Below, piece after piece: positions 1 through 18,940 of a stretch of DNA of 25,880 bases. Position 1 is the stretch's first letter, and every line of letters begins with the position of its first letter. Source of the DNA: a virus (taxonomy: Duplodnaviria > Caudoviricetes); IMG/VR virus record IMGVR_UViG_3300030376_007868, positions 1 through 25,880 of that record. One strand, 5' to 3'. Below the pieces are notes generated by a model. The model did no database searches. It was not told the DNA's origin and saw only the letters and a list, made by a program, of their open reading frames with translations. A program made the position numbers and the translations under genes.

Positions 1-699
1 CAATTACAGAATAGAGTGGTACTTAAAAACGGTATAAAATATCCTGGTAATGAACACATGGGAGCATTTGGTTGTGACTCTTATGATATATCAGGGACTG
101 TAGATGGAGAAGGTTCTAAAGGAGCATTACATGGCTTAACCAGGTTTAGTATGGAGGACGCTCCTGCGAATAGCTTTTTTTTAGAGTACTTATCAAGACC
201 ACCTACAGCTGAAATATTCTTTGAAGATGTTTTAATGGCGTTAGTATTTTATGGTATGCCAATATTAGCAGAGAACAACAAACCACGTCTTTTGTATTAT
301 TTAAGACGTAGGGGTTATAGAGGTTTTAGTATGAATAGACCTGATAAATCATGGAACAAATTATCTGTAGCAGAAAAAGAAGTAGGTGGTATACCAAACT
401 CTAGCGAAGACATAAAACAAGCTCACGCAGCCGCTATAGAAATGTACATACAAGATCACGTTGGTATAAGACAAGATGGTAGTCACGGTGATTTATATTT
501 TAACTCACTTTTAAACGACTGGGCTAAGTTTGATATAAATAAAAGAACAAAGTTTGATGCGTCAATAAGTTCTGGGCTAGCTATTATGGCTAACAATAGA
601 CATTTATATGCACCAAACTCTAAGGTTGAAAAACCTAAACTAAATATAAATATTTCCAAGTATAGTAATACTGGGACTAATTCACAAATAATAAAATAA
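1..699 (+). CDS. terL: Terminase large subunit, C-terminal nuclease region (5' truncated by window)
   Basis: Frame is open from base 1 (QLQNRVVLKNG...), so the ORF-track start at 16 is not the real start. Shows an RNase H-like TerL pattern (AFGCDSYD, FFLEYLSRP, ILAENNKP, KFDASISSGLA) and lies directly upstream of the portal. Confidence 0.85.
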   Translation, partial: QLQNRVVLKNGIKYPGNEHMGAFGCDSYDISGTVDGEGSKGALHGLTRFSMEDAPANSFFLEYLSRPPTAEIFFEDVLMALVFYGMPILAENNKPRLLYYLRRRGYRGFSMNRPDKSWNKLSVAEKEVGGIPNSSEDIKQAHAAAIEMYIQDHVGIRQDGSHGDLYFNSLLNDWAKFDINKRTKFDASISSGLAIMANNRHLYAPNSKVEKPKLNINISKYSNTGTNSQIIK

Positions 700-701
700 A
701 T

Positions 702-3116
702 ATGGCATATTCTAGTAAAAGTTATTTTCCAAGTCAAGCGGTGAGTGACGCTGAAAAGCTAAGCTACGATTATGGTTTAAAAATAGCTAAGGCTATAGAA
801 ACAGAATGGTTTAATGAGGAAAGAAGTTCTAATAGGTACATGTCTAACATTAAAGATTTTCATAATTTAAGATTGTACGCTAGAGGTGAGCAATCTATAC
901 AAAAATATAAGGATGAGTTATCTATAAACGGTGATTTGTCCTATTTAAATTTAGACTGGAAACCTGTTCCAATTATATCTAAGTTTGTAGATATAGTTGT
1001 TAATGGTATTGCTGAGAGAACATATGATATAAAAGCTTTTGCTCAAGATCCATTTAGTATAACAGAAAGAACTGAGTACATGGAGGCTATAATGGAAGAC
1101 ATGGAGATGAAGCAGTTTGATGCTGAAGTAGCTAGTGATTATGGTATAGATATGAGAAGCACAGAGGTAGAGCTACCAGACTCACCTGAAGAATTACAAC
1201 TTCACATGCAGTTGAATTACAAACAAGCCGTAGAACTAGCTGAAGAACAAGCTTTAAATGTTTTGTTTGAAGGTAACGATTACGAATCTATAAAGAAAAG
1301 ATTTTACTACGATTTAACAGTTCTAGGTATAGGTGCTGTAAAAACAAATTTTAACACATCCGAGGGCGTGACTATAGATTATGTTGATCCTGCTAATTTA
1401 GTATACTCATATACAGACTCGCCTAATTTCGATGATATATATTACGTTGGTGAAGTCAAGTCAATTCCAGTAAACGAATTAGCTAAACAATTTCCTCATT
1501 TAACAGAATCAGATCTTGAAGATATAATGAAAAACAAAAGTTATAATAGAAATAATTATAACACAAGGTATTCCGCAGACAAAGAAGATAACAACACTAT
1601 TCAAGTTTTATATTTTAATTATAAAACATATATGAATGAAGTTTATAAAGTAAAAGAAACTGGAACTGGAGCTGATAAAATTATACCTAAAGATGACTCG
1701 TTCAATCCACCTGAAGAAAAAGAAGGTGGTTATGGTAGAATGCTTAGATCTATAGAGTGTCTATATGAAGGCGCTTTAATATTGGGTACAAATAAGTTGC
1801 TTAAATATGAAATGGCTAAAAACATGATGAGGCCCAAAAGTGATTACACTAAAGTAAAAATGAATTATGCTATTGTAGCTCCTCGTATGTATGATGGTAA
1901 AATAGATTCGTTAGTAAAACGTATAACTGGTTTTGCAGACATGATACAACTTACGCATTTAAAATTACAACAAGTAATGTCGCGCATGGTACCTGATGGT
2001 GTCTACTTAGATGCTGATGGCTTAGCAGAAGTTGATTTAGGCAATGGAACAAATTACAATCCACAAGAAGCTTTAAACATGTTCTTCCAAACTGGTTCTG
2101 TTATAGGTAGATCGTTTACTCAAGATGGTGATATGAATCCTGGTAAAGTACCTATTAAAGAAATAACATCTGGTAGCGGAGGTAATAAAATGCAAGCTCT
2201 TATAGGTAATTACAATTATTATTTACAAATGATAAGAGATGTAACCGGACTTAACGAAGCTAGAGACGGTAGTATGCCAGACAAAAACGCTTTAGTCGGT
2301 GTACAAAAATTAGCAGCTGCAAATAGCAACACGGCAACAAGGCATATATTGCAAGCAGGATTATATTTAACATCCGAAACAGCCGAGTGCTTATCTCTTA
2401 GAATATCAGATGTCATAGAATACTCTCCAACTAAAGATGCTTTTATTCAAGCTATTGGTGTGCATAACGTTGCTACATTAAAAGAAATTTCTAATTTACA
2501 TTTGTATGATTTTGGAATATTTTTAGAGCTACAACCTGATGAAGAAGAAAAAGCTATTTTAGAAAACAATATTCAAATGGCGCTTCAACAAAAAACAATA
2601 GATTTAGAAGATGCTATTGATCTTAGAGATATAAGAAGTGTTAAGCTAGCTAATCAACTTTTAAAAATACGAAGAAAGAAAAAAGAAGACAAAGATAGAG
2701 CGTTGCAAATGCAAAACATACAAGCGCAGACTCAATCTAACACTCAAGCGGCTCAAGCTGCTGCCCAAGCTGATATTCAAAAAAACCAAGCTTTAAATGC
2801 TAGTAAAGCAGAGTTACTACAAATAGAAGCTCAAATAAATGCTCAAAAAATGCAACAAGAAGTTGAAATGAAAAAAGAATTAATGGCTTTAGAGTTTCAG
2901 TATAACATGCAGTTAAAAGGTGTTGAGGTTGATGGGATAAAAGAAAGGGAAAAACAAAAAGAAGATCGTAAAGACGAAAGAACAAAAATACAAGCTACAC
3001 AGCAATCAGAAATGATTGATCAAAGAAATAGTGGAAAACCACCTAAAAACTTTGAGTCCGCAGGTAATGATACCTTAGGCGGAGGATTTGATTTAGGCTC
3101 GTTTGAACCTAGATAA
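702..3116 (+). CDS. Portal protein (804 aa, crAss-like/Flavobacteria podophage type)
   Basis: Follows terL. Has the LNLDWKPVPIISKFVDIVVNG and IRDVTGLNEARDG motifs I recognise from portals of this phage group, and a long Q/A/E/K-rich C-terminal coiled coil like a P22-type portal barrel. Confidence 0.88.
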   Translation: MAYSSKSYFPSQAVSDAEKLSYDYGLKIAKAIETEWFNEERSSNRYMSNIKDFHNLRLYARGEQSIQKYKDELSINGDLSYLNLDWKPVPIISKFVDIVVNGIAERTYDIKAFAQDPFSITERTEYMEAIMEDMEMKQFDAEVASDYGIDMRSTEVELPDSPEELQLHMQLNYKQAVELAEEQALNVLFEGNDYESIKKRFYYDLTVLGIGAVKTNFNTSEGVTIDYVDPANLVYSYTDSPNFDDIYYVGEVKSIPVNELAKQFPHLTESDLEDIMKNKSYNRNNYNTRYSADKEDNNTIQVLYFNYKTYMNEVYKVKETGTGADKIIPKDDSFNPPEEKEGGYGRMLRSIECLYEGALILGTNKLLKYEMAKNMMRPKSDYTKVKMNYAIVAPRMYDGKIDSLVKRITGFADMIQLTHLKLQQVMSRMVPDGVYLDADGLAEVDLGNGTNYNPQEALNMFFQTGSVIGRSFTQDGDMNPGKVPIKEITSGSGGNKMQALIGNYNYYLQMIRDVTGLNEARDGSMPDKNALVGVQKLAAANSNTATRHILQAGLYLTSETAECLSLRISDVIEYSPTKDAFIQAIGVHNVATLKEISNLHLYDFGIFLELQPDEEEKAILENNIQMALQQKTIDLEDAIDLRDIRSVKLANQLLKIRRKKKEDKDRALQMQNIQAQTQSNTQAAQAAAQADIQKNQALNASKAELLQIEAQINAQKMQQEVEMKKELMALEFQYNMQLKGVEVDGIKEREKQKEDRKDERTKIQATQQSEMIDQRNSGKPPKNFESAGNDTLGGGFDLGSFEPR

Positions 3117-3143: not shown

Positions 3144-4355
3144 ATGGAAGAAAACAAAGAAAACGTAGTCGAAGAGACTACACAGCAAAACCAACAAGAT
3201 CCAGGTGATGAAAACGTGGTAAAAGTTGATGAAAGTAAATTTGAATCTGCTAAAGACGACAGTGTTGTAAAAGTAGATTTAAGTAAACCACCAACACCAA
3301 AAGAAGAAAAAAATGAAACTAAAGAAGATAACGCTGACAACAGCGGAGTGGTTACAGAGCCTGAAAATGCCGAGCCCACACAAAAACAAAAAGAAGTACA
3401 ACCGGAAGCAGAAACACAAGAAGCTCCAGTATTAGAAGAAATTACTGAAGATTCTACAGAGGAAGAAGTTGCAGAAGCGGAAGAAAAAATTGAAGAGGCT
3501 GTTGCTGAGGCTGAGGCTACTGGAAAACCATTACCAGAAAATATCCAAAAGCTTATGGATTTTATGGAAGAAACTGGTGGTGATTTAAATGACTATGTAA
3601 AGCTTAATCAAGACTATTCAAAATTAGATGATCAAAATCTATTATATGAATACTACAAGCAAACCAAACCTCATTTAAATAATGAAGAAATTAACTTCCT
3701 TATGGAAGATTCGTTCTCTTACGACGAAGAAGAAGATGAAGAAAGAGATATACGAAGAAAAAAATTAGCGTTAAAAGAGCAAGTTGCCAACGCTAGAGCC
3801 CATCTGGACGGGCAAAAGTCCAAATACTATGAAGATATTAAAGCTGGAAGTAAGCTCACAACAGAGCAGCAAAAAGCTGTAGATTTCTTTAATAGATACA
3901 ACAAAGAGTCAGAAGCAACTCAAAAAACAGTTAAAAAGAACACTGATATTTTTACACAGAAAACTAATCAAGTTTTTAACGACAAGTTCAAAGGTTTTGA
4001 ATATAACGTCGGTGATAAGAAATACAGGTTTAACGTAAACAATGCTGAAGAGGTTAAAAATACTCAGAGCGACATAAGCAATTTTACCAAAAAGTTTTTG
4101 GATAAGAACTCTGCTTTAACAGACGCTAAGGGTTATCATAAATCTTTATACACAGCAATGAATGCAGACGCTGTTGCAAAACACTTTTACGAACAAGGTA
4201 AAGCTGACGCTATGAAAGATAGTGTTGCTAAATCTAAAAATGTAGATATGAATCCACGACAAAGTCATGGAAAAATTGAAGCAGGAGGTATGAAGTTTAA
4301 AGTGTTAGGTAGTGATTCTTCTGATTTGAAGTTTAAAATTAAAAACAATAAATAA
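3144..4355 (+). CDS. Putative capsid scaffolding/assembly protein (403 aa, very acidic)
   Basis: Lies between portal and MCP. E/D-rich, probably disordered N-half and helical C-half. Internal duplication DENVVKVDESK / DDSVVKVDLSK. Confidence 0.65.
   Translation: MEENKENVVEETTQQNQQDPGDENVVKVDESKFESAKDDSVVKVDLSKPPTPKEEKNETKEDNADNSGVVTEPENAEPTQKQKEVQPEAETQEAPVLEEITEDSTEEEVAEAEEKIEEAVAEAEATGKPLPENIQKLMDFMEETGGDLNDYVKLNQDYSKLDDQNLLYEYYKQTKPHLNNEEINFLMEDSFSYDEEEDEERDIRRKKLALKEQVANARAHLDGQKSKYYEDIKAGSKLTTEQQKAVDFFNRYNKESEATQKTVKKNTDIFTQKTNQVFNDKFKGFEYNVGDKKYRFNVNNAEEVKNTQSDISNFTKKFLDKNSALTDAKGYHKSLYTAMNADAVAKHFYEQGKADAMKDSVAKSKNVDMNPRQSHGKIEAGGMKFKVLGSDSSDLKFKIKNNK
3313..3435 (+). CDS. Overprinted small basic protein (40 aa) in the +1 frame of the scaffold gene, ArfA-like C-terminal motif
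   Basis: ATG 3313 to TAG 3435 translates MKLKKITLTTAEWLQSLKMPSPHKNKKKYNRKQKHKKLQY. A-rich leader (aagaagaaaaaaATG). KNKKKYNRKQKH resembles the KNKKGKGSYMRKGKH segment of E. coli ArfA. Confidence 0.55.
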   Translation: MKLKKITLTTAEWLQSLKMPSPHKNKKKYNRKQKHKKLQY

Positions 4356-4375: not shown

Positions 4376-5842
4376 ATGGCAATTACTGCAGGAGGTAGTT
4401 TAAATAGTGTACCTGCTCCACAGCAGCAAACACTATCTACAAACTACGTAGATTTTACGTCCACTTCAACTGAAGGTTGGGCACAACAGTACTTACCTGA
4501 GTTAATGGAAAAAGAGGCTGAGGTTTTTGGACCTAGAACAATCTCTGGTTTCCTTAATCAAGTAGGTGCAGAAGAAGCAATGACTTCTGACCGAGTTATA
4601 TGGTCTGAGCAATCAAGATTACATATAACTTTAACTGGTACTATAGATTTAGATGGTAACGTATCTTCATCTGGTGCAAAAGGTAAGTTTACAAGTGTTA
4701 AAGATGTAGACGGTAACGCGATTACAACTACACACGGTGTTCGTAATCATGACCTTTGTTTACTTTCAACTCCAGGTAAAGTATCTAGAGTTTTAGTTGT
4801 CGCTGTTGACGGCGCTGCTATTGGTATTAGAGCTTACGACGAAGATGTTTTAACTGGTCACTCTGAAACAGCTGAAGCTGCTACTTTATTAGTTATCGGT
4901 TCTGAATTTAAGAAAGGTGATAACTACGATGGTACAACTACAAGAGGCGCTAACGAGCCTGACTTTAAAACTTTCACCAACAAACCTATTATCATGAAAG
5001 ATTACTACGAAGTATCTGGATCTGATGCTGGTAGAATTGGTTGGGTTGAAGTTTCTTCTGAAGGCGGTGCTTCTGGGTACTTATGGTACTTAAAAGCTGA
5101 AGCTGACACAAGAGCTCGTTTTACTGATTACTTAGAAATGGCAATGCTTGAGTCTATTCCAGGTTCTAATTCAACTAATGTTGATGGTGAACTAGGTTTA
5201 TCTCCAGAAAGCGATGCTGGTACTGAAGGTTTATTCTACGCTATTGAGCAAAGAGGTAACGTTACTACTGGTGTTACTGGTACTAACGCTGCTACTGATT
5301 TAGCTGAATTTGACGCTATTTTAGCTGAGTTTGATAAGCAAGGTGCTATTGAAGAAAATATGATGTTCGTAAACAGAGCTACTAGTTTAGCTATGGATGA
5401 CATGTTAGCTTCTATGAATTCTTACGGAGCTGGTGGTACTTCTTACGGGGTATTTGATAACTCTGAAGATATGGCATTAAATTTAGGTTTCTCTGGTTTC
5501 AGAAGAGGTTCTTATGACTTCTATAAGTCTGACTTCAGATACTTAAATGACAAAGCTACAAGAGGTGGTATTAATGCAACTGCTGGATCTGAAGCGTTAA
5601 GAGGTGTTATTATACCAGCTGGTTCTTCTTCAGTTTACGATCAAACTGTTGGATCAGCTGTTAGACGTCCTTTCTTACACGTTAGATATAGAGCTTCACA
5701 AACTGATGACCGAAGAATGAAAACTTGGGTTACTGGTTCTGTTGGCGCTGCTACATCTGCTTTAGATGTAATGCAGATACATATGTTATCAGAAAGATGT
5801 TTAGTTACTCAAGGTGCTAATAACTTTATGTTAATGAAGTAA
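4376..5842 (+). CDS. Major capsid protein (488 aa)
   Basis: Synteny (portal-scaffold-MCP-terminator). Strong T/A-ending codon bias (GCT, GGT, ACT, TCT) as expected for a highly expressed gene. WAQQYLPEL...RTISGFL and LNLGFSGFRRGSYDFYK motifs recognised from this MCP family. Confidence 0.88.
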   Translation: MAITAGGSLNSVPAPQQQTLSTNYVDFTSTSTEGWAQQYLPELMEKEAEVFGPRTISGFLNQVGAEEAMTSDRVIWSEQSRLHITLTGTIDLDGNVSSSGAKGKFTSVKDVDGNAITTTHGVRNHDLCLLSTPGKVSRVLVVAVDGAAIGIRAYDEDVLTGHSETAEAATLLVIGSEFKKGDNYDGTTTRGANEPDFKTFTNKPIIMKDYYEVSGSDAGRIGWVEVSSEGGASGYLWYLKAEADTRARFTDYLEMAMLESIPGSNSTNVDGELGLSPESDAGTEGLFYAIEQRGNVTTGVTGTNAATDLAEFDAILAEFDKQGAIEENMMFVNRATSLAMDDMLASMNSYGAGGTSYGVFDNSEDMALNLGFSGFRRGSYDFYKSDFRYLNDKATRGGINATAGSEALRGVIIPAGSSSVYDQTVGSAVRRPFLHVRYRASQTDDRRMKTWVTGSVGAATSALDVMQIHMLSERCLVTQGANNFMLMK

Positions 5843-9199: not shown

Positions 9200-12100
9200 A
9201 TGCCGGATTTAAATCGTAAGTTTTACGCAGGTAAAATGAATAAGGATCTAGACGAAAGACTAGTTCCCAATGGAGAGTATAGAGACGCTATGAATGTTCA
9301 AGTGTCAACTTCAGATAATTCTGATGTTGGCTCTATACAAAACCTTTTGGGAAACATAGATGTTTCGTCTAATTTTTTTACAGATCCACAAGGTAGTGTT
9401 TTAAATTCTGCTCTACTAGAAACTTATGGTTTTTATTGTGTTGGTAGTGTTACTGACGATAAAAACGACAGATTATACTGGATGGTGTCTGGTCTTGGAA
9501 TAGACTTTATTGCTGAATACGATTATAAAACAAAAAAAGTATCACCTATTGTTGTTGACATATTTCAAAATAATGTATCACCAGGTGGTGACGGTAGGGT
9601 TTTACATTTTGATAAAAGCTATTTAATTACTGGTATTAATATAATAGAGGACACGTTGTTTTGGACAGATAATAATACAGAACCAAAAAGAATAAAAATA
9701 TCAGAAATTAGAATTGGTACAACTGATTTTTTAACTCACACACAGTTTTATGTACCAAATCCAAATAAAGGCCCCGCATCAACCTCAACTCCTTTTGTGT
9801 CTGCTGGTGATTTAAAGCATGAGCATATAACGGTTATTAGAAAAGGCCCGCAAAAACCTCCAACGTTAGAAATGAAAAATACAAGACGTGAGGATGTAAC
9901 AGGGTCTGGGCCAATACGAGGAGAAATAACAACAACTATAGAGCAAGCTAGTGGTCTTTCTTATCTTTTTGATGTTGCTACAGGAACGTTTATAAATCCT
10001 CCTGGAGGTGTATCTATCACGTTTGACACGGCTCCAGATTTTATTGAAGGAGATAAATTAGTTATAGAATCTAAAAAACCGGGTACTAATGTTTTGAAAA
10101 AAACAAAAATTATTGTTGAGGTAGTAGGTGCTATTTCTTACTCCGCACCTCCCAACTCACAGTTAACATGTAATGTAAAAGTACTTAGTATGGATAAAAA
10201 TATAGATTTATCTAATACTTCTTATTACGTTTCTTTACTTCAAGATACCCCATTGTTTGAATTTGTTTTTCCTAGGTTTGGATGTAGATACAAATACAAA
10301 GATGGCGAGTACTCTGCTTTTTCACCGTTTTCAGAAGTAGCGTTTTTACCTGGGCGATATGATTATCTACCTAAAGAAGGTTATAATTTAGCAATGGTGA
10401 ATACAGTGAGAGCACTTGGGGTTTGCAACTTTGTAGACGCTCGTTCTATACCTAAAGACGTTGTTTCTATTGATATACTTTATAAGGAGTCTAACTCTCC
10501 AAATGTGTACTCTATAAAAACCGTAGATAAAGTTGCTATAGAAGAAGGTGTTTACGATTCTTGGAACGCTATTTCACCAACAGAAATGAGAGACCCAAAC
10601 TTAATTGCAAAACAATTAACATATGGTTATTTAGACGTAGAAGCAGAAATGATTCACTCTATACTTCCTTCAAATCAACTTTTAAGAGGTTGGGATAATG
10701 TACCTAGAAAAGCACTTGCACAAGAAGTTATTGGTAATAGACTTGTTTATGCAAATTATTTACAAAATTACAATGTTTTCTCATCTGCACTACAAAGACC
10801 ATCCGCTCTTTACAACGACATTAATTATCAAGACGCTGTATTAAGGCCTTCTAAAAATATAGAAGTAGACGTAAAACTTAGTTATGATTCCACCCTTGAT
10901 GTAGGAACTATTATACCTGAACAACTCGATGCTGGTAAAGCGTATACTTATAAGTCTGCAAAAACAATAAAATCTCTTAGAACGTATCAAGTTGGAGTTG
11001 TTTACATTGATGAGTTTGGAAGAGAAACACCTGTATTTTCAGATCAAAAAAGTAATAAAAACACAACGTATGTACCAAAAGAAAGCGCACATAAACAAAC
11101 AAAATTAAACGCTCAAATTTTTAGTTCCACACCTGACTTTGCAAAAAACTTTAAATTTTTAATTAAAGAAACTTCAAGCGAGTATTATAACTTAGCTATG
11201 GACAGGTGGTACTTTGCTGACGATGGTAACATTTGGGTTTCTTTTCCTTCTTCTGATAGAAGTAAGGTAGATATAGAAACATTTTTAATATTAAAAAAAG
11301 CTCACGAATCTTCCGAGGTAATAACAGATTTAGCAAGATATAAAATACTAGATATTGATAATGAGGCTCCTAAATTTATAAAAACCAAAAGAACTGCTGT
11401 AAGAACTGTAAATAGTGGTTTTGTAGATGTTGCAAACAATATACCTATTATAATGCCGAATGGTACATCTGATGGTAATTTCCCTTATATAGACGGAACT
11501 TTTATACAGATACATGATGATGTTTTTGGTCCTCAAGTAAGATTATGGGATGCTGAAACTGAAGCAACTGAAAAACAATTTAGATTAGTCTCTCCTGAAG
11601 GTGCTAGTGATTGGTATGATGTTAAGAGTTGGGAAAATCCTAATTTTCAATCTGGCTCTACTACAGCTTCAACCGCTACTATTGGAGTTGGTGGATATTG
11701 GAATATAAAATCTTCAAGAAAATTTGGAGTTGATATGTCCATAACAACACCTTTTGCGGCGCCTATTTCAACAGTTGAAAAAGCTTACGCCAACATTAAA
11801 GTTGAGTTTATTAAAAAAGAAGAGAAAAATTTACCAGAATTTGAAGGTAGATTTTTTGTTAAAATATTAAAAGATGCGCAATTACAACAGTATATCATAG
11901 GTTATGCTGACACATCTACTACGTACACATCTATTAATCAAATAGTTTGCCAATACATAAACCCTATGGACCCAGAGGTTCAAGCAGGTGGTGAATTAGA
12001 TGATGGTACTCAGTTTTACAACTGCGAAAAAGATAAAATATCTATAGACAATAGTAATACAACTACGGGTCTACATCCATTAATAGGAAATGGCCACGGT

Positions 12101-15100
12101 CATTATTTTTGGCAAAGCGCTGGTGACACGGAGCATACAACGAGCGAATCTAGCGGTTGGTTTATAGACAAAATAGAAGCCTTTAGGCCGTTTGCTTATA
12201 ATGCTTATTATTTTGATAGATCTGATGAACACTCGAAAATAAGTCTTTTCAATAGCCCAGTTCTTAGTGTCCCAGCAGGTAAAAGAGCACCGTATCAAGA
12301 GCCAACTCTTTTTGATTTTAGTACCATGGGTTCACCATGGGAAGCTGGTTGGGACGATGGTCATGGTACTACTTGGAACGCTCCAAATAGAGCGTTGGGA
12401 ATAAAAGCACAGCTTTATGGTGCGGGACAAACTGATAGATCTTGGAGCGATGGATGGTTTGAGCCTCTCACACCTCCAGCTTGGGGGGTAGGTTTTCCAA
12501 CTGGAAATAATTTTGGATTGGCTTGGGATACACCAGGTCCACCAGCAACAAGTGTGCCGGGTTATGTAACTCCTTATAATTATATAGAAATGACTGATCG
12601 TGCTGGTGATAAAGCAAAACAACTTCAATTAATTGGTGATTGTACTAATTATCGCAACGGTCAAGGTGCGCCGCATAAAGGATATTTAGGTCACGATGAT
12701 ATTGCAACACCAGTTAGATACATTAGCGCAACTGGAGAGTGGCACCCTGTGCTTGAGTTTGCTAAAGAACCAGCATCGGGTAGTAGAAATCAAAACGGTA
12801 GAATATTACCAGCTGTTGGCGTTGATCAAGTTAATAATATTATAACTCTTTCTTACGCTGGTATAGGTAATTCAAAAAACTATACAGATAAACATTGGAA
12901 TGGTTTTGAAAATACTGACGGATCAGAAACTCTTAAATCGTATTTTACGCACACTGCCTGGGGTGGTACATATGTGTCACACCAAACTTTTATAGATTCT
13001 ATTACCACTCCTGGAACAATATGGAGATGGAAACAAGATCCTAGTCAAGTTGTATATCAAACACAACAGTTAGATGCGGCTAGTGGACATGGTTCTAACT
13101 CTAGCGTTAGCCAAAACACATGGAATTACAACGAGGTTGATTATGCTGACTGGAACTCTTCAACGGCAAAAGGTGTTGAGCTTTTTAATTATACTAAAAT
13201 ACAAGATTATCTTACTTATCATTTTTTAGAAATACAAAGAATGTCTACGAGCACAGCACATTGTTACGCACCAAGAGCTAATTGGGCAACTCAAGCTATA
13301 GGTAATTATTCCACTCCAGAGAGCACTGGGATAGGAAGTAATTTATGTATACCGATGTCGCAGTCTTTTTATTCTTATTCTGCAGAAAAGTCATTCTTTC
13401 CTAGATTTAACTCAACTGACGACGCTGTGCCTGCTCAAGGTATCACTGCTGAAGATCGTAGAAGTAGAAGGTGGCCTATGTTTACCTCAGACTGGGACTC
13501 AGCATCAAATAGAAGAAGACGTTATACAATACATGCGAAACCTTTACCTTATCAATTTACTGGTACAGCATATGAAACAGACGGTACTGAAAAAATTGGA
13601 GATATAGGTCCACATTTTTATTCCCCAACAAACAACTCGGCTCTTGATCCGCATTTTGATCATAATGGAGATGTTCTTACTACGATACCAGCTACAAAAG
13701 CGCCTGGTATACGCCCAGATGGTATGTACACAGGCCGTCCTCATTTAACCGACCAATCACTTGGTATTACAACGATTCCAGGTTTAAAAACTTTAAATAC
13801 AGATACAAATAAAGTAGGTCGAGCACCTGGAAGTGTTATTTGGCAAATACTAGATAATTATGTTGAAGACGGGGCTAGCGAAGGTTATTTTAGTCAAAAC
13901 CCTGGTGTTTGGGAAACAGAACCTAAAGAAAAATTAGGATTAGAAATATATCACGAGGTAGGACAGATATACCCAACAGAGTTAAATGAAACAAATTTAG
14001 AGCAATTTTTTGGACCTATTTATCAAGGAGATCCTACTGTTGATCCATCTTACTTAATTAAAAACAGTAAAGTAACTTGTTTTCAACCACCACCTGTTAC
14101 TTTAACACCTACCGGTAGTCCAAAAGCTTTAAGTACCAATGCTGGTAATGGAGATCAAGATTTTGATATTAGAGTGCAACGGGTGGTTTGGAATGGTGAC
14201 AAGGCATATGTTTGGCTTATGGATGTTAACGGTAACGCGTTAACAAGTATAGGTGGTACAGTTGCCCCAGCAAAAGACGAAACTTTAATATTCACTAGAG
14301 CAGACGGAAGTAAAACTCAAGTAAATGTAAAAAGTGTAGTGTCAACATTTGTACAGATTTATGAAGTGCATCTTGATACTCATAACTACGAAGTAACATT
14401 GCCTTTTTTCAACGCTTATTCATTTGGAAATGGTGTTGAATCAGACCGTATTAGAGATGATTTTAATCAAGTTACTATAGATAATGGACCAAAAGTTTCT
14501 GCAGTTCTTGAAGAACCATATTTAGAAGAAAATAGATCAAGCGGTTTAATATATTCTGGTATATACAACTCAATGAGTGGTGTCAATAATCTTAATCAAT
14601 TTATTCAAGCAGAAAAAATAACAAAAGATTTAAACCCAAGTTATGGTAGTATACAAAAATTATTTGCTAGAAATACAGACCTAGTTACATTTTGTGAAGA
14701 TAAAGTATTTAAAATACTAGCCAATAAAGATGCCTTGTTTAACGCTGATGGAAATGCCAACTTAACAGCAACAGAAAACGTATTAGGACAAACGGTTCCT
14801 TTTGTTGGGGATTATGGTATATCTAAAAATCCAGAATCATTTGCGGCAGATGCTTTTAGATTATATTTCACAGATAGAACAAGAGGTAATGTTTTAAGAT
14901 TATCACAAGATGGTATTACTTCAATATCTGATTACGGTATGAAGGACTGGTTTAATGATAATTTAACAGGCGCCAGTAGAGTTATAGGTAGTTTTGACGA
15001 TAAAAAAAGTGAGTATAATATAAGTTTAGATTATTACAACTACGAGAGCTATGAAGTTGGAATTATAGGAAATCCTAATATTGGACCCGCTATTCCAGGC

Positions 15101-18100
15101 ACAACCACGCCATTGACTTATGTAGTAACTAACGAGTTAGCAGTTTCTTACGAGGTTGCTAACAATATGGAAGTAGATGATACTATATTTGGAAATGGAA
15201 TACCAGTTGGAACAACAGTTGTTTCTAAACAAAACTTAGGTGGAGGACAGTGGAAGATTTATATGAGCGCACCTGGTGACAATACTGTTTTAGGTTCTTA
15301 TGTTTCATACGGTGTTCAGCAAGCTGGAGTTCCTGGTCCTGTTATATGGAAAACTAAAGTTTACAGTTCTAAAGACGATCTACAAGCATACACACTATCT
15401 TACTCAGATTCTGTTAGAGGTTGGCCTAGTTTTAAATCTTTTTATTATGAAAATGGTTTAAGTTTAAACAATGATTATTTTACTATTAAAGGAGGTCAAC
15501 TATATCAACACCATGCCAACGATTCGCACAACACTTTTTACGATGAGTTTGCAGAGTCTAGCGTTGAGGTTTTATTTAACGAACAATCTGGCTCAGTTAA
15601 AAGCTTTCAAACTCTTGATTACGAAGGTACACAGTCTAAAGTTACATCTGATGGTGGTTTAAATGAAACAAGCAACTCTGCGGAATACTGGGATAATTAC
15701 GATAAATTAGGTTGGTATGTTGATAACATGTTTACAGATTTACAAGAAGCAGAGCCTGCTGAATTTAAAAACAAAGAGGGTAAATGGTTTTCTACAGTAA
15801 AAGGAGTTGCTACAGAGTGGTTAGATGATGGGGCTGCTGGAAATATAGATACTAAAGAATTTTCATATCAAGGTATAGATGAAGCAAGTGAGATTACAGT
15901 TCTTGATGAAGATGGTGGTTATACTTCTTGGGATTGTCAACCTATCAATGGTGGTTATCTTGGTTCTTGTTGTGTTGACAGCAATGGTAATCCACTGCCG
16001 GTTTATCCAACTATTTTACAAAGCAATCCACCTGTTGTTCCAAACACTCTTATTGCACCTGCTAGTCCTTTAGCTTATCAAATTATGAGTCTTTTATTTG
16101 ATAATCCTACTATTTTAGTTAATAACACTGTTTTTGAGTACGATGATGGTACAGCTGGCTCTATTTGGTGCTCTGCTTTTGGTGGTGGCGCATTAATAGA
16201 TGGCAGTGTATATCCTAACTCTCAACTACAACCTTTTGTAGACATACACTCAAACCCTGGTCCACTTACGGGTGGAACTCAATATGTCGATAATATTACT
16301 CTTCAACCAGCCGCTCCAGGACAAGTAGATTCTTATACTGCAAATCCAGATTATGCAAACACTACTGACCACCGCGTAGTTTACACTAATATAAACTATT
16401 TAGTTCAGTGGTGTTCTACATACTTAGATTCAAATGTATTTTATTTGGGCATGAGTTTTCACGATTGGTACAACGCTATGGCCGGAAGCTCTCATGGAGG
16501 ATCTTTACCTGGTCAATTTGTTTATGCTGGTGTTTACGCAAACGTAACAAATCCTTGTGCTAGCGGTGGTGCTGTACAACCAGGATCTTTTAACTGTATT
16601 GAAGTACAGGGCTTAAGCGGTGCTTATCCTAACGAAGCTGCATGTTTGGCAGACCCTGATTCTGAGTGTAATCCAGATTGCCAAACTGACAACGATGTTA
16701 CAGTGCACACTGTAGACGCTTTTGTATCTTCTTGTATTAACGGTAGGGTTTCTGTGGAGGTTTATTTAGCTGGTAATGCTACTAGTTGGTCTGTAGAATA
16801 TTTTTACTCTGCAAATGACGCACCTGTATATTATCTTGTAGATAATAATAGTTATACTCATAATGGTTTTTCTAATGATTTAATGGGTGCTCAAGGTAGT
16901 TACTACGCTATAGTTACCGATGACTTAGGCTGTACAGTGAAAAAATACTTTACAATAGGATGTAATCCTGTTGCACAACCTTGTTCTCCAACAAATCCAC
17001 ACTCTTTTAATGGTCCTTTAATACAAAATCCTCAAGATCTCAATAATACAGGTTGTTGGGAGACTGGTGATCCAAATGTAAGTACAGAAAGTGGTAGCAT
17101 TACGTTTATAAATACTTCTCTAGTATCTCCAGCAACATCTTGGGGATATGAACTTTATGTAGTTATAAATGGAAACGCCACTATAATTGCTAGTGATACT
17201 GGTTTGCTAGCTGGTGGACCAAACGAAAAAATTGACGGTCTTGAAAATGGAGATTACGTATACCGAATAACTGACGATAATTGTGAATACGAGTATGTTC
17301 CATTTACATTAGACTGTACTGATGCTGCTGCTCCGTGTGATCCACCAGTACTTGGTCAATCAAGCACAAGTACAACAATGAGTACTAGTAATGATAATTG
17401 TGTAACAGATAACAGCGATGGTAAACACGAACTTTTAAATGTTTTATCTGCTCCTACAGGCTCATATTATACCGCGTACTACCGTTATGACAATACACAA
17501 TACTCATCTTGGCCGGGTTTTGCTAATGCAACAATAATGGGCACAGTTCAAGGACCTTTCACATCTACAGCACCAATTGGCGCAAATCCTAATATTGTAA
17601 GTCGTTCTGGTTTATCAGACTCTATTTTAAGTGGTAATAACTATGTGATTGTAGTTTCAAACGATATAGATTTTGAATGTGCAAGTGTAAATGAGTTTAC
17701 AATTAACTGTGATGATACTGAACCTGTTGACCCTTGTGTAGGTGAGAATAATGTGAGTTTAGGCCCTAAAGTTACAGGTGCTATTATAAACGCGACTAGT
17801 TATGATTGTGATGCAGCTAGTCCAATTTACGTATCTTACGGCTCTCATACTCTTACTACTGTGCAAACACAACCTGCAGCACAAGGATTTACAGTTGAAT
17901 ATTTTTCTCCAGCAGGCTTTAATATAACAGCCCAAGCTGGTGGTGTTCAAAGTTTTAGCGCTGGAGCAACGATGGTGCAAGCAAACGGTCATGATTTCTT
18001 AATGCCCGGCGGTCCTTACACTTGTGTTATAACAGACAATTTAGGCTGCTCTACAACAATAACGTTTGTGGTAAAGTGCGAACAAATAGTAGGTGTAGAT

Positions 18101-18940
18101 CCTACTTATGATTGTAATAATGGCTGTAACCCAAGCACGCTACCAATTTCAACAGCAGCGCCATTTACTATTTTTAGTAGTTATGCTGCTTGTATAGCTA
18201 GTGATTGTTATACGTCTCAAGTGTGCACAGGACAACCCTGGGTTGGTTGTTGCGATTATGTGCAAAATACTGGTCAAGGATACCCTCCTTCACCAAGTGT
18301 TGGAGATAGTGGTCCAAATATAGATCCTGTAACTGGAGTTGGCAAATCTTGCTATGAAGATCCTTGTTGCGATTGTTGTGGGGAAAATAATTTGGGAGCC
18401 ACTGCAAGCGGTTTGTATCCTATACCACATCCATCAAACCAAAATTATTTACATCAATCTTGTCAAGGCGCACATTGGGACTTTCCTAATAACACTGGAC
18501 CTATTTGTGTAGAACCTAACTTGAGTTGCTTTACTAAAAATGATTCAGTTGAAATGTTTGATGGTGCATTAAAACCTATAAGTGAGATTAAAATTGGTGA
18601 TGAAGTAAAATCTATTAAAAATGGTAAAACTACAAAAGGTATTGTAACAGAATCGTTAGTACATCCATTTAACAATACAACTGAAGTTGTAAAAATAAAC
18701 GGTATAACTGCAGAACCTTATCACCCTGTCTACATAGATGGTAAATGGATACCTATTAAAGAATTAGGCGAAACAACTTATCAATTTATTGATAGTTGGT
18801 ACAACTTAGAAATAGATGGTAATATTGATGATAGTGAACATAATTATATTATTGGCGGTATAATTGCCTCTGGACTAGGTGATAACGAAAAACTTAACAA
18901 CAAGTACAAACGTCAACCCAAACAAATATTTAACTTGTAA
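9200..18940 (+). CDS. Giant tail stabilisation/nozzle protein (P22 gp10 / crAss muzzle-like) with a Cys-rich, SprB-like C-terminal extension and a terminal Hint domain (3246 aa)
   Basis: Family-type motifs GKMNKDLDERLVPNGEYRDAMN, LFWTDNNTEPKRI, VPRKALAQEVIGNRLVYANY, FGNGVESDRIRDDFN, GDYGISKNPESFA, FKNKEGKWF. After KEFSYQGID (~15880) come about 1000 aa of Cys-rich repeats. Hint domain starts at Cys3110 (18527). Confidence 0.8.
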   Translation: MPDLNRKFYAGKMNKDLDERLVPNGEYRDAMNVQVSTSDNSDVGSIQNLLGNIDVSSNFFTDPQGSVLNSALLETYGFYCVGSVTDDKNDRLYWMVSGLGIDFIAEYDYKTKKVSPIVVDIFQNNVSPGGDGRVLHFDKSYLITGINIIEDTLFWTDNNTEPKRIKISEIRIGTTDFLTHTQFYVPNPNKGPASTSTPFVSAGDLKHEHITVIRKGPQKPPTLEMKNTRREDVTGSGPIRGEITTTIEQASGLSYLFDVATGTFINPPGGVSITFDTAPDFIEGDKLVIESKKPGTNVLKKTKIIVEVVGAISYSAPPNSQLTCNVKVLSMDKNIDLSNTSYYVSLLQDTPLFEFVFPRFGCRYKYKDGEYSAFSPFSEVAFLPGRYDYLPKEGYNLAMVNTVRALGVCNFVDARSIPKDVVSIDILYKESNSPNVYSIKTVDKVAIEEGVYDSWNAISPTEMRDPNLIAKQLTYGYLDVEAEMIHSILPSNQLLRGWDNVPRKALAQEVIGNRLVYANYLQNYNVFSSALQRPSALYNDINYQDAVLRPSKNIEVDVKLSYDSTLDVGTIIPEQLDAGKAYTYKSAKTIKSLRTYQVGVVYIDEFGRETPVFSDQKSNKNTTYVPKESAHKQTKLNAQIFSSTPDFAKNFKFLIKETSSEYYNLAMDRWYFADDGNIWVSFPSSDRSKVDIETFLILKKAHESSEVITDLARYKILDIDNEAPKFIKTKRTAVRTVNSGFVDVANNIPIIMPNGTSDGNFPYIDGTFIQIHDDVFGPQVRLWDAETEATEKQFRLVSPEGASDWYDVKSWENPNFQSGSTTASTATIGVGGYWNIKSSRKFGVDMSITTPFAAPISTVEKAYANIKVEFIKKEEKNLPEFEGRFFVKILKDAQLQQYIIGYADTSTTYTSINQIVCQYINPMDPEVQAGGELDDGTQFYNCEKDKISIDNSNTTTGLHPLIGNGHGHYFWQSAGDTEHTTSESSGWFIDKIEAFRPFAYNAYYFDRSDEHSKISLFNSPVLSVPAGKRAPYQEPTLFDFSTMGSPWEAGWDDGHGTTWNAPNRALGIKAQLYGAGQTDRSWSDGWFEPLTPPAWGVGFPTGNNFGLAWDTPGPPATSVPGYVTPYNYIEMTDRAGDKAKQLQLIGDCTNYRNGQGAPHKGYLGHDDIATPVRYISATGEWHPVLEFAKEPASGSRNQNGRILPAVGVDQVNNIITLSYAGIGNSKNYTDKHWNGFENTDGSETLKSYFTHTAWGGTYVSHQTFIDSITTPGTIWRWKQDPSQVVYQTQQLDAASGHGSNSSVSQNTWNYNEVDYADWNSSTAKGVELFNYTKIQDYLTYHFLEIQRMSTSTAHCYAPRANWATQAIGNYSTPESTGIGSNLCIPMSQSFYSYSAEKSFFPRFNSTDDAVPAQGITAEDRRSRRWPMFTSDWDSASNRRRRYTIHAKPLPYQFTGTAYETDGTEKIGDIGPHFYSPTNNSALDPHFDHNGDVLTTIPATKAPGIRPDGMYTGRPHLTDQSLGITTIPGLKTLNTDTNKVGRAPGSVIWQILDNYVEDGASEGYFSQNPGVWETEPKEKLGLEIYHEVGQIYPTELNETNLEQFFGPIYQGDPTVDPSYLIKNSKVTCFQPPPVTLTPTGSPKALSTNAGNGDQDFDIRVQRVVWNGDKAYVWLMDVNGNALTSIGGTVAPAKDETLIFTRADGSKTQVNVKSVVSTFVQIYEVHLDTHNYEVTLPFFNAYSFGNGVESDRIRDDFNQVTIDNGPKVSAVLEEPYLEENRSSGLIYSGIYNSMSGVNNLNQFIQAEKITKDLNPSYGSIQKLFARNTDLVTFCEDKVFKILANKDALFNADGNANLTATENVLGQTVPFVGDYGISKNPESFAADAFRLYFTDRTRGNVLRLSQDGITSISDYGMKDWFNDNLTGASRVIGSFDDKKSEYNISLDYYNYESYEVGIIGNPNIGPAIPGTTTPLTYVVTNELAVSYEVANNMEVDDTIFGNGIPVGTTVVSKQNLGGGQWKIYMSAPGDNTVLGSYVSYGVQQAGVPGPVIWKTKVYSSKDDLQAYTLSYSDSVRGWPSFKSFYYENGLSLNNDYFTIKGGQLYQHHANDSHNTFYDEFAESSVEVLFNEQSGSVKSFQTLDYEGTQSKVTSDGGLNETSNSAEYWDNYDKLGWYVDNMFTDLQEAEPAEFKNKEGKWFSTVKGVATEWLDDGAAGNIDTKEFSYQGIDEASEITVLDEDGGYTSWDCQPINGGYLGSCCVDSNGNPLPVYPTILQSNPPVVPNTLIAPASPLAYQIMSLLFDNPTILVNNTVFEYDDGTAGSIWCSAFGGGALIDGSVYPNSQLQPFVDIHSNPGPLTGGTQYVDNITLQPAAPGQVDSYTANPDYANTTDHRVVYTNINYLVQWCSTYLDSNVFYLGMSFHDWYNAMAGSSHGGSLPGQFVYAGVYANVTNPCASGGAVQPGSFNCIEVQGLSGAYPNEAACLADPDSECNPDCQTDNDVTVHTVDAFVSSCINGRVSVEVYLAGNATSWSVEYFYSANDAPVYYLVDNNSYTHNGFSNDLMGAQGSYYAIVTDDLGCTVKKYFTIGCNPVAQPCSPTNPHSFNGPLIQNPQDLNNTGCWETGDPNVSTESGSITFINTSLVSPATSWGYELYVVINGNATIIASDTGLLAGGPNEKIDGLENGDYVYRITDDNCEYEYVPFTLDCTDAAAPCDPPVLGQSSTSTTMSTSNDNCVTDNSDGKHELLNVLSAPTGSYYTAYYRYDNTQYSSWPGFANATIMGTVQGPFTSTAPIGANPNIVSRSGLSDSILSGNNYVIVVSNDIDFECASVNEFTINCDDTEPVDPCVGENNVSLGPKVTGAIINATSYDCDAASPIYVSYGSHTLTTVQTQPAAQGFTVEYFSPAGFNITAQAGGVQSFSAGATMVQANGHDFLMPGGPYTCVITDNLGCSTTITFVVKCEQIVGVDPTYDCNNGCNPSTLPISTAAPFTIFSSYAACIASDCYTSQVCTGQPWVGCCDYVQNTGQGYPPSPSVGDSGPNIDPVTGVGKSCYEDPCCDCCGENNLGATASGLYPIPHPSNQNYLHQSCQGAHWDFPNNTGPICVEPNLSCFTKNDSVEMFDGALKPISEIKIGDEVKSIKNGKTTKGIVTESLVHPFNNTTEVVKINGITAEPYHPVYIDGKWIPIKELGETTYQFIDSWYNLEIDGNIDDSEHNYIIGGIIASGLGDNEKLNNKYKRQPKQIFNL
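16679..18079 (+). repeat. Four degenerate SprB-like / Ig-like protein repeats (about 95-125 aa each)
   Basis: Repeat ends: GSYYAIVTDDLGCTVKKYFTIGC, GDYVYRITDDNCEYEYVPFTLDC, NNYVIVVSNDIDFECASVNEFTINC, GPYTCVITDNLGCSTTITFVVKC. These match the G-x-Y-x-V-x-V-T-D-x-x-G-C end of SprB repeats. Confidence 0.7.
18527..18940 (+). other. C-terminal Hint (hedgehog/intein-like) autoprocessing domain, non-splicing type
   Basis: Block A CFTKNDSVEMFDGALKPISEIKIGDEV, block B AEPYHPVY, block F WYNLEI...HNYIIGG. Ends IASGLG rather than the His-Asn splice junction. Confidence 0.85.

Follow-up and report, generated by a model that had tools for sequence, protein, structure and literature searches.

We describe a small gene of 40 codons hidden in the +1 frame of a longer phage gene, which itself probably encodes a capsid scaffold. 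Comparison across relatives has shown purifying selection on the protein read in the +1 frame, and the nested gene is almost certainly real. Its product is a basic peptide with a C-terminal tail that is probably homologous, judging by sequence, to the tail of the ribosome rescue factor ArfA. The peptide as a whole fails as a member of the ArfA family.

The nested ORF and its selective constraint

The DNA analyzed here (the window) is a linear, 25.9-kb virus record from a marine phage and represents about half of a complete genome. On its + strand, the C-terminal part of a terminase large subunit (16..699; phrog_6681, E 4.5e-55) is followed by a portal protein gene (702..3116; phrog_6547, E 5.8e-155), by the gene that encloses the nested ORF (3144..4355; 403 aa) and by a virion structural protein gene (4376..5842; phrog_13704, E 5.2e-92) that is likely, from its position, to encode the major capsid protein. 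We infer from position and acidic composition alone that the enclosing gene encodes the scaffold. The scaffold protein begins with an arm that is variable and acidic, with 41 D+E among residues 1-128, and its C-terminal part is conserved; it had no PHROG match and nothing significant in Pfam or NCBIfam (best E 0.33). Flavobacterium elemo phages have an identical gene order, with a counterpart of the scaffold gene that is 37% identical and annotated as 'structural protein', and these relatives make Bacteroidota the probable bacterial host. Elsewhere in the window, a 3246-aa ORF with Cys-rich repeats (9200-18940) ends in a segment that presumably resembles a Hint domain.

The nested ORF (3313..3435, + strand) starts with ATG, ends with a TAG at 3433-3435 and encodes 40 residues, including 13 K+R and 1 D+E. 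It spans residues 57-97 of the scaffold protein in the +1 frame, with its start, open frame and stop all contained in the longer ORF, and its designation as a gene is based on selection and family matches. An earlier note on this DNA had described a complete 40-codon +1 ORF with an A-rich leader, and the ORF was found there with the sequence as given. An in-frame TAA shuts the +1 frame 10 codons 5' of the ATG (3280..3282, + strand; 1-11 codons in relatives). The 15 bases preceding the ATG (3298..3312, + strand) read CAAAAGAAGAAAAAA. This A-rich leader has an A at -3, lacks a Shine-Dalgarno and likely forms a Bacteroidota-type initiation region. Initiation without a Shine-Dalgarno is described for Bacteroidetes (PMC6847099), and an A at -3 fits it. 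Such an A was present in 78% of 163 nested starts versus 41% of 3979 control +1 ATGs, in part as a by-product of the Glu and Lys codons of the scaffold frame. It was also found at 9 of 12 starts elsewhere in the window, and the nested leader is less U-rich than theirs. Wobble variation in the scaffold frame falls already at residues 46-54 (3280-3312), ahead of the nested ATG, and this drop may mark the internal initiation region. Four RNA-library runs yielded assembled contigs of relatives, some spanning the nested region; contigs of this kind show no strand, level or translation.

Constraint was measured on 76 loci. Out of at least 590 confirmed relatives of the scaffold, the best 80 were taken; one 5'-incomplete locus and four duplicates were removed and the window was added. 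The nested ORF was intact in 68 of these, with the ATG, open frame and motif recognized by pattern in 67 and a variant in the other (L077); two of the remaining eight carried internal stops and six had no ORF. The ATG was kept in all 68 intact loci and the A-run before it was variable. Length variants of the ORF had whole codons inserted after the ATG. At L059, L068, L031 and L070 the copy in the arm is broken or has been lost in part, the last two retaining only the tail end in the +1 frame.

On a tree of the 68 intact loci, the ratio of parsimony changes at codon position 3 to those at position 1 of the scaffold frame was 0.30 inside the overlap versus 1.33, 2.18 and 2.52 outside. Since position 1 of the scaffold frame is the wobble position of the +1 frame, the low ratio indicates constraint on the +1 frame. 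The pN/pS values, which are pairwise and uncorrected for kinship, were 0.31 for the +1 frame (column bootstrap 0.22-0.44) and 1.13 for the scaffold frame (0.83-1.51) in the overlap of all 76 loci. In three flanks the +1 values were 0.73, 0.95 and 1.03, and the overlap interval lies below the flank intervals. The 68-locus set gave 0.20 and 1.65, respectively; it was selected for an intact ORF, which makes stop depletion within it circular, and pN/pS was therefore redone on the 76 loci, a set unselected for the ORF. The earlier note had proposed to check whether the +1 ATG, frame and motif are retained as the scaffold frame diverges, and this was borne out.

An open frame by itself is weak evidence, since 1144 of 5000 synonymous recodings of the scaffold segment retained the ATG and an open +1 frame; the earlier note had warned in a similar vein that basicity of a +1 frame is not evidence by itself. 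The motif is another matter, as the real peptide scored 68.5 bits against a profile of database-called relatives and the best of the 5000 recodings reached 41.9, in a control made imperfect by the nested gene itself having shaped the scaffold residues. In 68 of 69 nested loci, the nested peptide was nearer to that of the window than was the scaffold frame over the same DNA (mean 0.71 versus 0.51).

Relatives of the peptide and their probable link to ArfA and DUF7230

The best 80 DNA matches to the peptide profile were all nested with an identical frame relation, versus two entries in an exact-length protein search, so gene callers do largely miss the peptide, as had been predicted. A motif scan gave 120 loci, of which 109 were nested and 11 free-standing (three assigned by re-reading), and a scan with database-called relatives added 78 new loci (69 nested, 9 free-standing). 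The earlier note was therefore correct that free-standing small phage ORFs carry this motif, and one of them, gp147 of the cultured Flavobacterium phage immuto, is an annotated stand-alone gene among small hypothetical genes. The free-standing relatives start at about the position of the nested ATG, and an HHalign comparison of the nested set with the database-called relatives gave a probability of 99.3%. Many called proteins of 36-60 residues that came up in profile searches show the whole pattern L-T-x-x-E-W-x-x-A ... H-K-N-K-K-K-Y-x-R-K-x-K-H-K, with gene context examined for the contig matches; of 8000 candidates that were scored, 2521 reached E<=1. Three free-standing motif genes (L189, L221 and L275) each lie directly 5' of a gene that we take to resemble a UV-damage endonuclease. 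PAK2, designed coiled coils and an Atlas neighbour, 'L5 gene 78', also turned up among matches. Searches with the peptide by tblastn against cultured phages and against NCBIfam returned nothing, and no account of the nested peptide was found in the literature searched (mostly non-subscription papers).

Nested copies persist in scaffold proteins of as little as 33-34% identity. The peptide is not universal in the arms of these phages: an elemo-centred scan found it in none of 58 non-duplicate arms, and the elemo arm itself also lacks it. Together with the 8 of 76 close relatives in which it is missing or broken, this makes the nested gene dispensable. A loose first-pass search found no free-standing copy in 10 records with peptide-less arms (three with a completeness of 90% or more, plus the elemo record), where it was run without a positive control, or in four other records.

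The peptide has two recognizable parts. Residues 10-17 (3340..3363, + strand) form a predicted short amphipathic helix (AlphaFold2, mean pLDDT 84.7, pTM 0.34), and residues 23-36 (3379..3420, + strand) form the basic tail H-K-N-K-K-K-Y-x-R-K-x-K-H-K, with its Y, R and KH in the register of Y39, R41 and K44-H45 of ArfA. The conserved columns fall in both parts: among 84 family members, T9 and E12 were each present in 79, Y29 in 81, R31 in 83, K34 in all 84 and H35 in 79.

ArfA (PF03889; E. coli b4550) is likewise small, is also encoded by phages, and has a short helix followed by a basic tail K-N-K-K ... Y-x-R-K-x-K-H. The tail of the window peptide carries the Y-x-R and the KH pair in the ArfA register, and the alignment set out in the earlier note, with three residues missing, is the one that HMMER produces with ArfA from the PDB and that is seen in a phage ArfA. 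ArfA was the top natural match among 177,635 PDB sequences (E 0.12, which alone is not significant); a PDB search with the nested-only profile returned nothing. In both directions of comparison the tail outscored shuffles matched for composition. The ArfA profile scored a mean of 8.4 bits on the 84 members versus 2.0 for half-shuffles. HHalign against a phylum-wide ArfA reference set gave a probability of 27% with the nested set and 63-75% with the family, and none of 200 column shuffles reached the HHalign score; basic low-complexity tails can converge, and shuffles leave such convergence unmodelled. PF03889 was found on 23% of the members of one Atlas neighbour cluster.

The earlier note had proposed a search with the ArfA profile. 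Against PF03889 (cut-off 25.5 bits) there was no match to the window peptide at E<=10, to any of the 84 family members at E<=0.1, or to the whole genome at E<=1. The resemblance is confined to the C-terminal 22-24 columns, with the N-terminal half unaligned in every profile comparison, and there is no sequence alignment between the predicted helix 10-17 and helix 15-24 of ArfA. K34-S38 of the ArfA motif K-G-K-G-S-Y/F is invariant in the 27 ArfA sequences used for this purpose; the GKG is missing in the peptide, which has K in place of S38 and nothing that corresponds to the invariant F25, G35 and G37. Neither L24-F25 nor the N-terminal segment is matched. The position of the RF2-binding strand 27-30 of ArfA reads P-S-P-H here (M-P-S-P-H, no Phe), in which the two prolines are ill suited to a beta-strand; some free-standing members read M-R-x-x-V-H/E, nearer to the F-R-Q-R-V-E of ArfA. 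Foldseek found nothing with the 40-residue model, which is too small for that result to inform. The peptide further differs from ArfA in its nesting, its probable Bacteroidota host and its own stop. This TAG after 40 codons, and the lack of a terminator-like site on the + strand inside the ORF in a simple pattern scan, mean that the non-stop control of ArfA is absent here.

DUF7230 (PF23876) has the same tail as the window peptide. The match of the peptide to its profile (E 1.6e-4, 22.2 bits, cut-off 27) covers profile positions 17-35 only; 64 of 84 family members match at E<=0.1, and a free-standing member (L246) scores 28.3 bits, above the cut-off. Core DUF7230 genes start K-N-P-V, in contrast to the L-T-x-x-E-W of the peptide family. 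The peptide also matches PHROGs 6310, 1359, 2701 and 18092, below or without cut-offs. No literature naming DUF7230 or the linked PHROG accessions was found, and no function is recorded for them. A protein of Pseudoalteromonas phage J2-1, ATN93434 (L478:133-285), passes the cut-offs of both PF03889 (41.3 bits versus 25.5) and DUF7230 (28.6 versus 27), which suggests that DUF7230 is a relative of ArfA. It combines an ArfA N-terminal half with a shortened tail without GKG, and searches that start from it bring up core DUF7230 genes, of which three of three tested were above the cut-off. Two ORFs of Roseobacter phages that are 59% alike are similarly divided, that of CRP-212 passing for ArfA and that of CRP-9 for DUF7230.

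Candidate function and competing explanations

ArfA and BrfA place a basic C-terminal part in the empty mRNA channel of the ribosome and recruit RF2 through a short strand, and the KH pair common to both contacts 16S rRNA of the channel (PMC8012679, PMC6881298). BrfA, like the peptide, is small and basic, and was not among the PDB matches of the peptide at E<=10. ArfT, a small basic rescue factor of ~40 aa (PMC8012679), can be set beside the peptide by description; passages of PMC6514570 gave no link to ArfT.

The conserved Y, R and KH of the peptide match the channel-binding part of ArfA and BrfA, and the peptide is therefore likely to bind the host ribosome. It is hypothesized that it is an ArfA-type factor, with a tail that would insert into the vacant mRNA channel when host ribosomes stall and an N-terminal helix that would help to recruit a release factor. 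We give this hypothesis about an even chance, and release-factor-dependent rescue as such is just as finely balanced. Initiation would take place within the head-gene message, at the nested ATG, by way of the A-rich leader, and the peptide would be made together with the head proteins. Its tail would be an ArfA-type tail minus the three-residue GKG loop, and recruitment of the release factor, the weakest step, would free stalled ribosomes for virion protein synthesis. Rescue factors are poorly exchangeable across species (PMC8012679, PMC6881298), and the conservation of the predicted helix suggests that it is placed for a host-specific second contact. A pelagiphage ArfA gene, with its function assumed from annotation, is reported to be highly transcribed both early and late (PMC12753301).

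The competing explanation that fares best is possible but on balance unlikely. An ArfA-type tail could plug the channel without activating a release factor, competing with tmRNA-SmpB or parking ribosomes. The tail is the sole ArfA-like part of the peptide, nothing in it clearly matches F25 and the strand by which ArfA contacts RF2 (with prolines at that site in the subtype of the window), and an SmpB tail peptide alone is reported to block tmRNA-SmpB binding (PMC8012679). A plug would not account for the conservation of T9, E12 and the helix, which suggests a second contact, and a general block of translation would presumably hurt a phage that is making head proteins.

We consider it improbable that the peptide serves in the virion, binding packaged DNA or the acidic scaffold arm. 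The 13 K+R in 40 residues, the nesting in the head module and the second, unrelated basic peptide in the same arm of relatives (described below) would suit such a role, as would two free-standing copies (L249 and L264) that adjoin structural-looking genes. Against it, nine free-standing copies and immuto gp147 lie mostly amid small non-structural genes, and the DNA-condensing role offered as an alternative in the earlier note lost ground on this account. Y29, R31 and K34-H35 are also nearer to invariance than charge alone would need, and a phage ArfA has the same tail.

A programmed frameshift or transcript slippage that fuses the scaffold N-terminus to the basic peptide is very unlikely. An A-run does precede the ATG in the window, and scaffold-peptide chimeras occur among database proteins (P0002, P0008, P0009, P0134, P0135, P0143 and P0144), with nearby junctions in three (P0134, P0143 and P0144). 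These proteins are predicted from DNA, so the chimeras are probably contig indels. The constant ATG, the in-frame stop 1-11 codons 5' of it, the inconstant A-run and the similar starting point of free-standing relatives all argue for internal initiation instead. That there is no second gene at all, and only a shadow of the Glu-rich scaffold or an RNA or DNA element, is scarcely credible: 23% of synonymous recodings do keep the ATG and open frame, but variation sits at the +1 wobble position, where it is non-synonymous for the scaffold, and full-length free-standing relatives exist.

A second nested family and the origin of the nesting

One relative (L078) has no KHK peptide and carries another +1 ORF, with an M-P-F-x-S-x-A-Q start, in the same arm (L078:1598-1756). 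Further members of this second family include L433:2815-2976 and L420:2836-2973, with 65 loci among L484-L563. Among six second-family peptides tested, four matched phrog_1375 (best E 9e-6); a search of cultured phages with the second-family peptide gave nothing, and the second gene is absent from the window. Its 76 non-duplicate loci comprise 65 nested in the scaffold arm, six under another long frame, one of which is a truncated scaffold, and five free. The second family was seen under long frames other than the scaffold at L544, L550, L555, L558 and L562. In 10 of the 65 scaffold-nested loci it stands in tandem, ahead of the KHK peptide. Over 22 codons, pN/pS was 0.25 for its +1 frame and 0.89 for the scaffold frame.

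In a tree built from the C-terminal domains of 134 scaffolds, several of the deep branches include arms that carry both genes, and closely related sisters have one or the other. This fits an ancestor with both genes followed by reciprocal loss or arm exchange. The sample was biased to positives and near-identical tips with different labels were kept, so the change counts of 25 and 18 are not rates.

Complete small +1 genes inside longer phage genes are familiar from phiX174, where E lies in the external scaffold gene D, and from lambda, where Rz1 lies in Rz. Nested genes and phage ArfA are already known kinds. The present case differs from E and Rz1 in that the inner product has free-standing relatives and the arm may hold one, both or neither gene family. 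The earlier note had called the peptide overprinted. The nesting stands; the origin of a new gene inside an old one is doubtful, since the peptide has full-length free-standing relatives and, of the two frames, it is that of the scaffold arm that varies. For the same reasons, the likelier history is that the arm captured a small gene that already existed, with escape from a nested origin as the alternative. Capture would have needed the removal of stops, which occur in eight of nine free-standing copies when read in the scaffold-type frame. An acidic, flexible arm would tolerate it, as Lys-rich codons read one base earlier give Glu, Gln and Lys. The peptide tree has three changes between nested and free states with supports near 0.8, too weak to tell capture from escape. 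The arm would illustrate how nesting can arise through capture, with a Lys-rich gene serving as a Glu-rich linker one base earlier.

By such a route, other acidic arms should also conceal basic genes, and two more examples were found. In Roseobacter phage CRP-212, the 41-aa ORF that passes the ArfA cut-off (L479:139-261) is unannotated and overlaps gp38 in the +1 frame, where the acidic tail at the C-terminus of gp38 is encoded, between the portal and coat genes. Of 11 relatives, 4 keep it intact and 6 have a shortened copy that lacks a start. In CRP-9, the related ORF (L566:1477-1614) overlaps, again in +1, the acidic N-terminal portion of gp53, which directly precedes the coat gene; its only candidate starts are GTG or TTG. 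The relative in HTVC027P is a called gene adjoining the small terminase.

We tentatively propose, at somewhat less than even chances, that acidic arms of head proteins are a swappable cassette for hidden +1 basic genes, and that marine Bacteroidota phages and Roseobacter phages would separately have tied rescue peptides of the ArfA superfamily to head-gene expression through it. The present family would then be an unrecognized rescue branch that uses Bacteroidota release factors, with DUF7230 as its sister. If the link to ArfA is true, thousands of unannotated small phage proteins, along with DUF7230, acquire a function that can be tested, and phages control ribosome rescue more widely than ArfA-annotated phage genes imply. 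ArfA-like ORFs are also unannotated in Ralstonia phage RsoM2USA and Pseudomonas phage pf16 (L477 and L483), where a hypothetical gene is called on the opposite strand.
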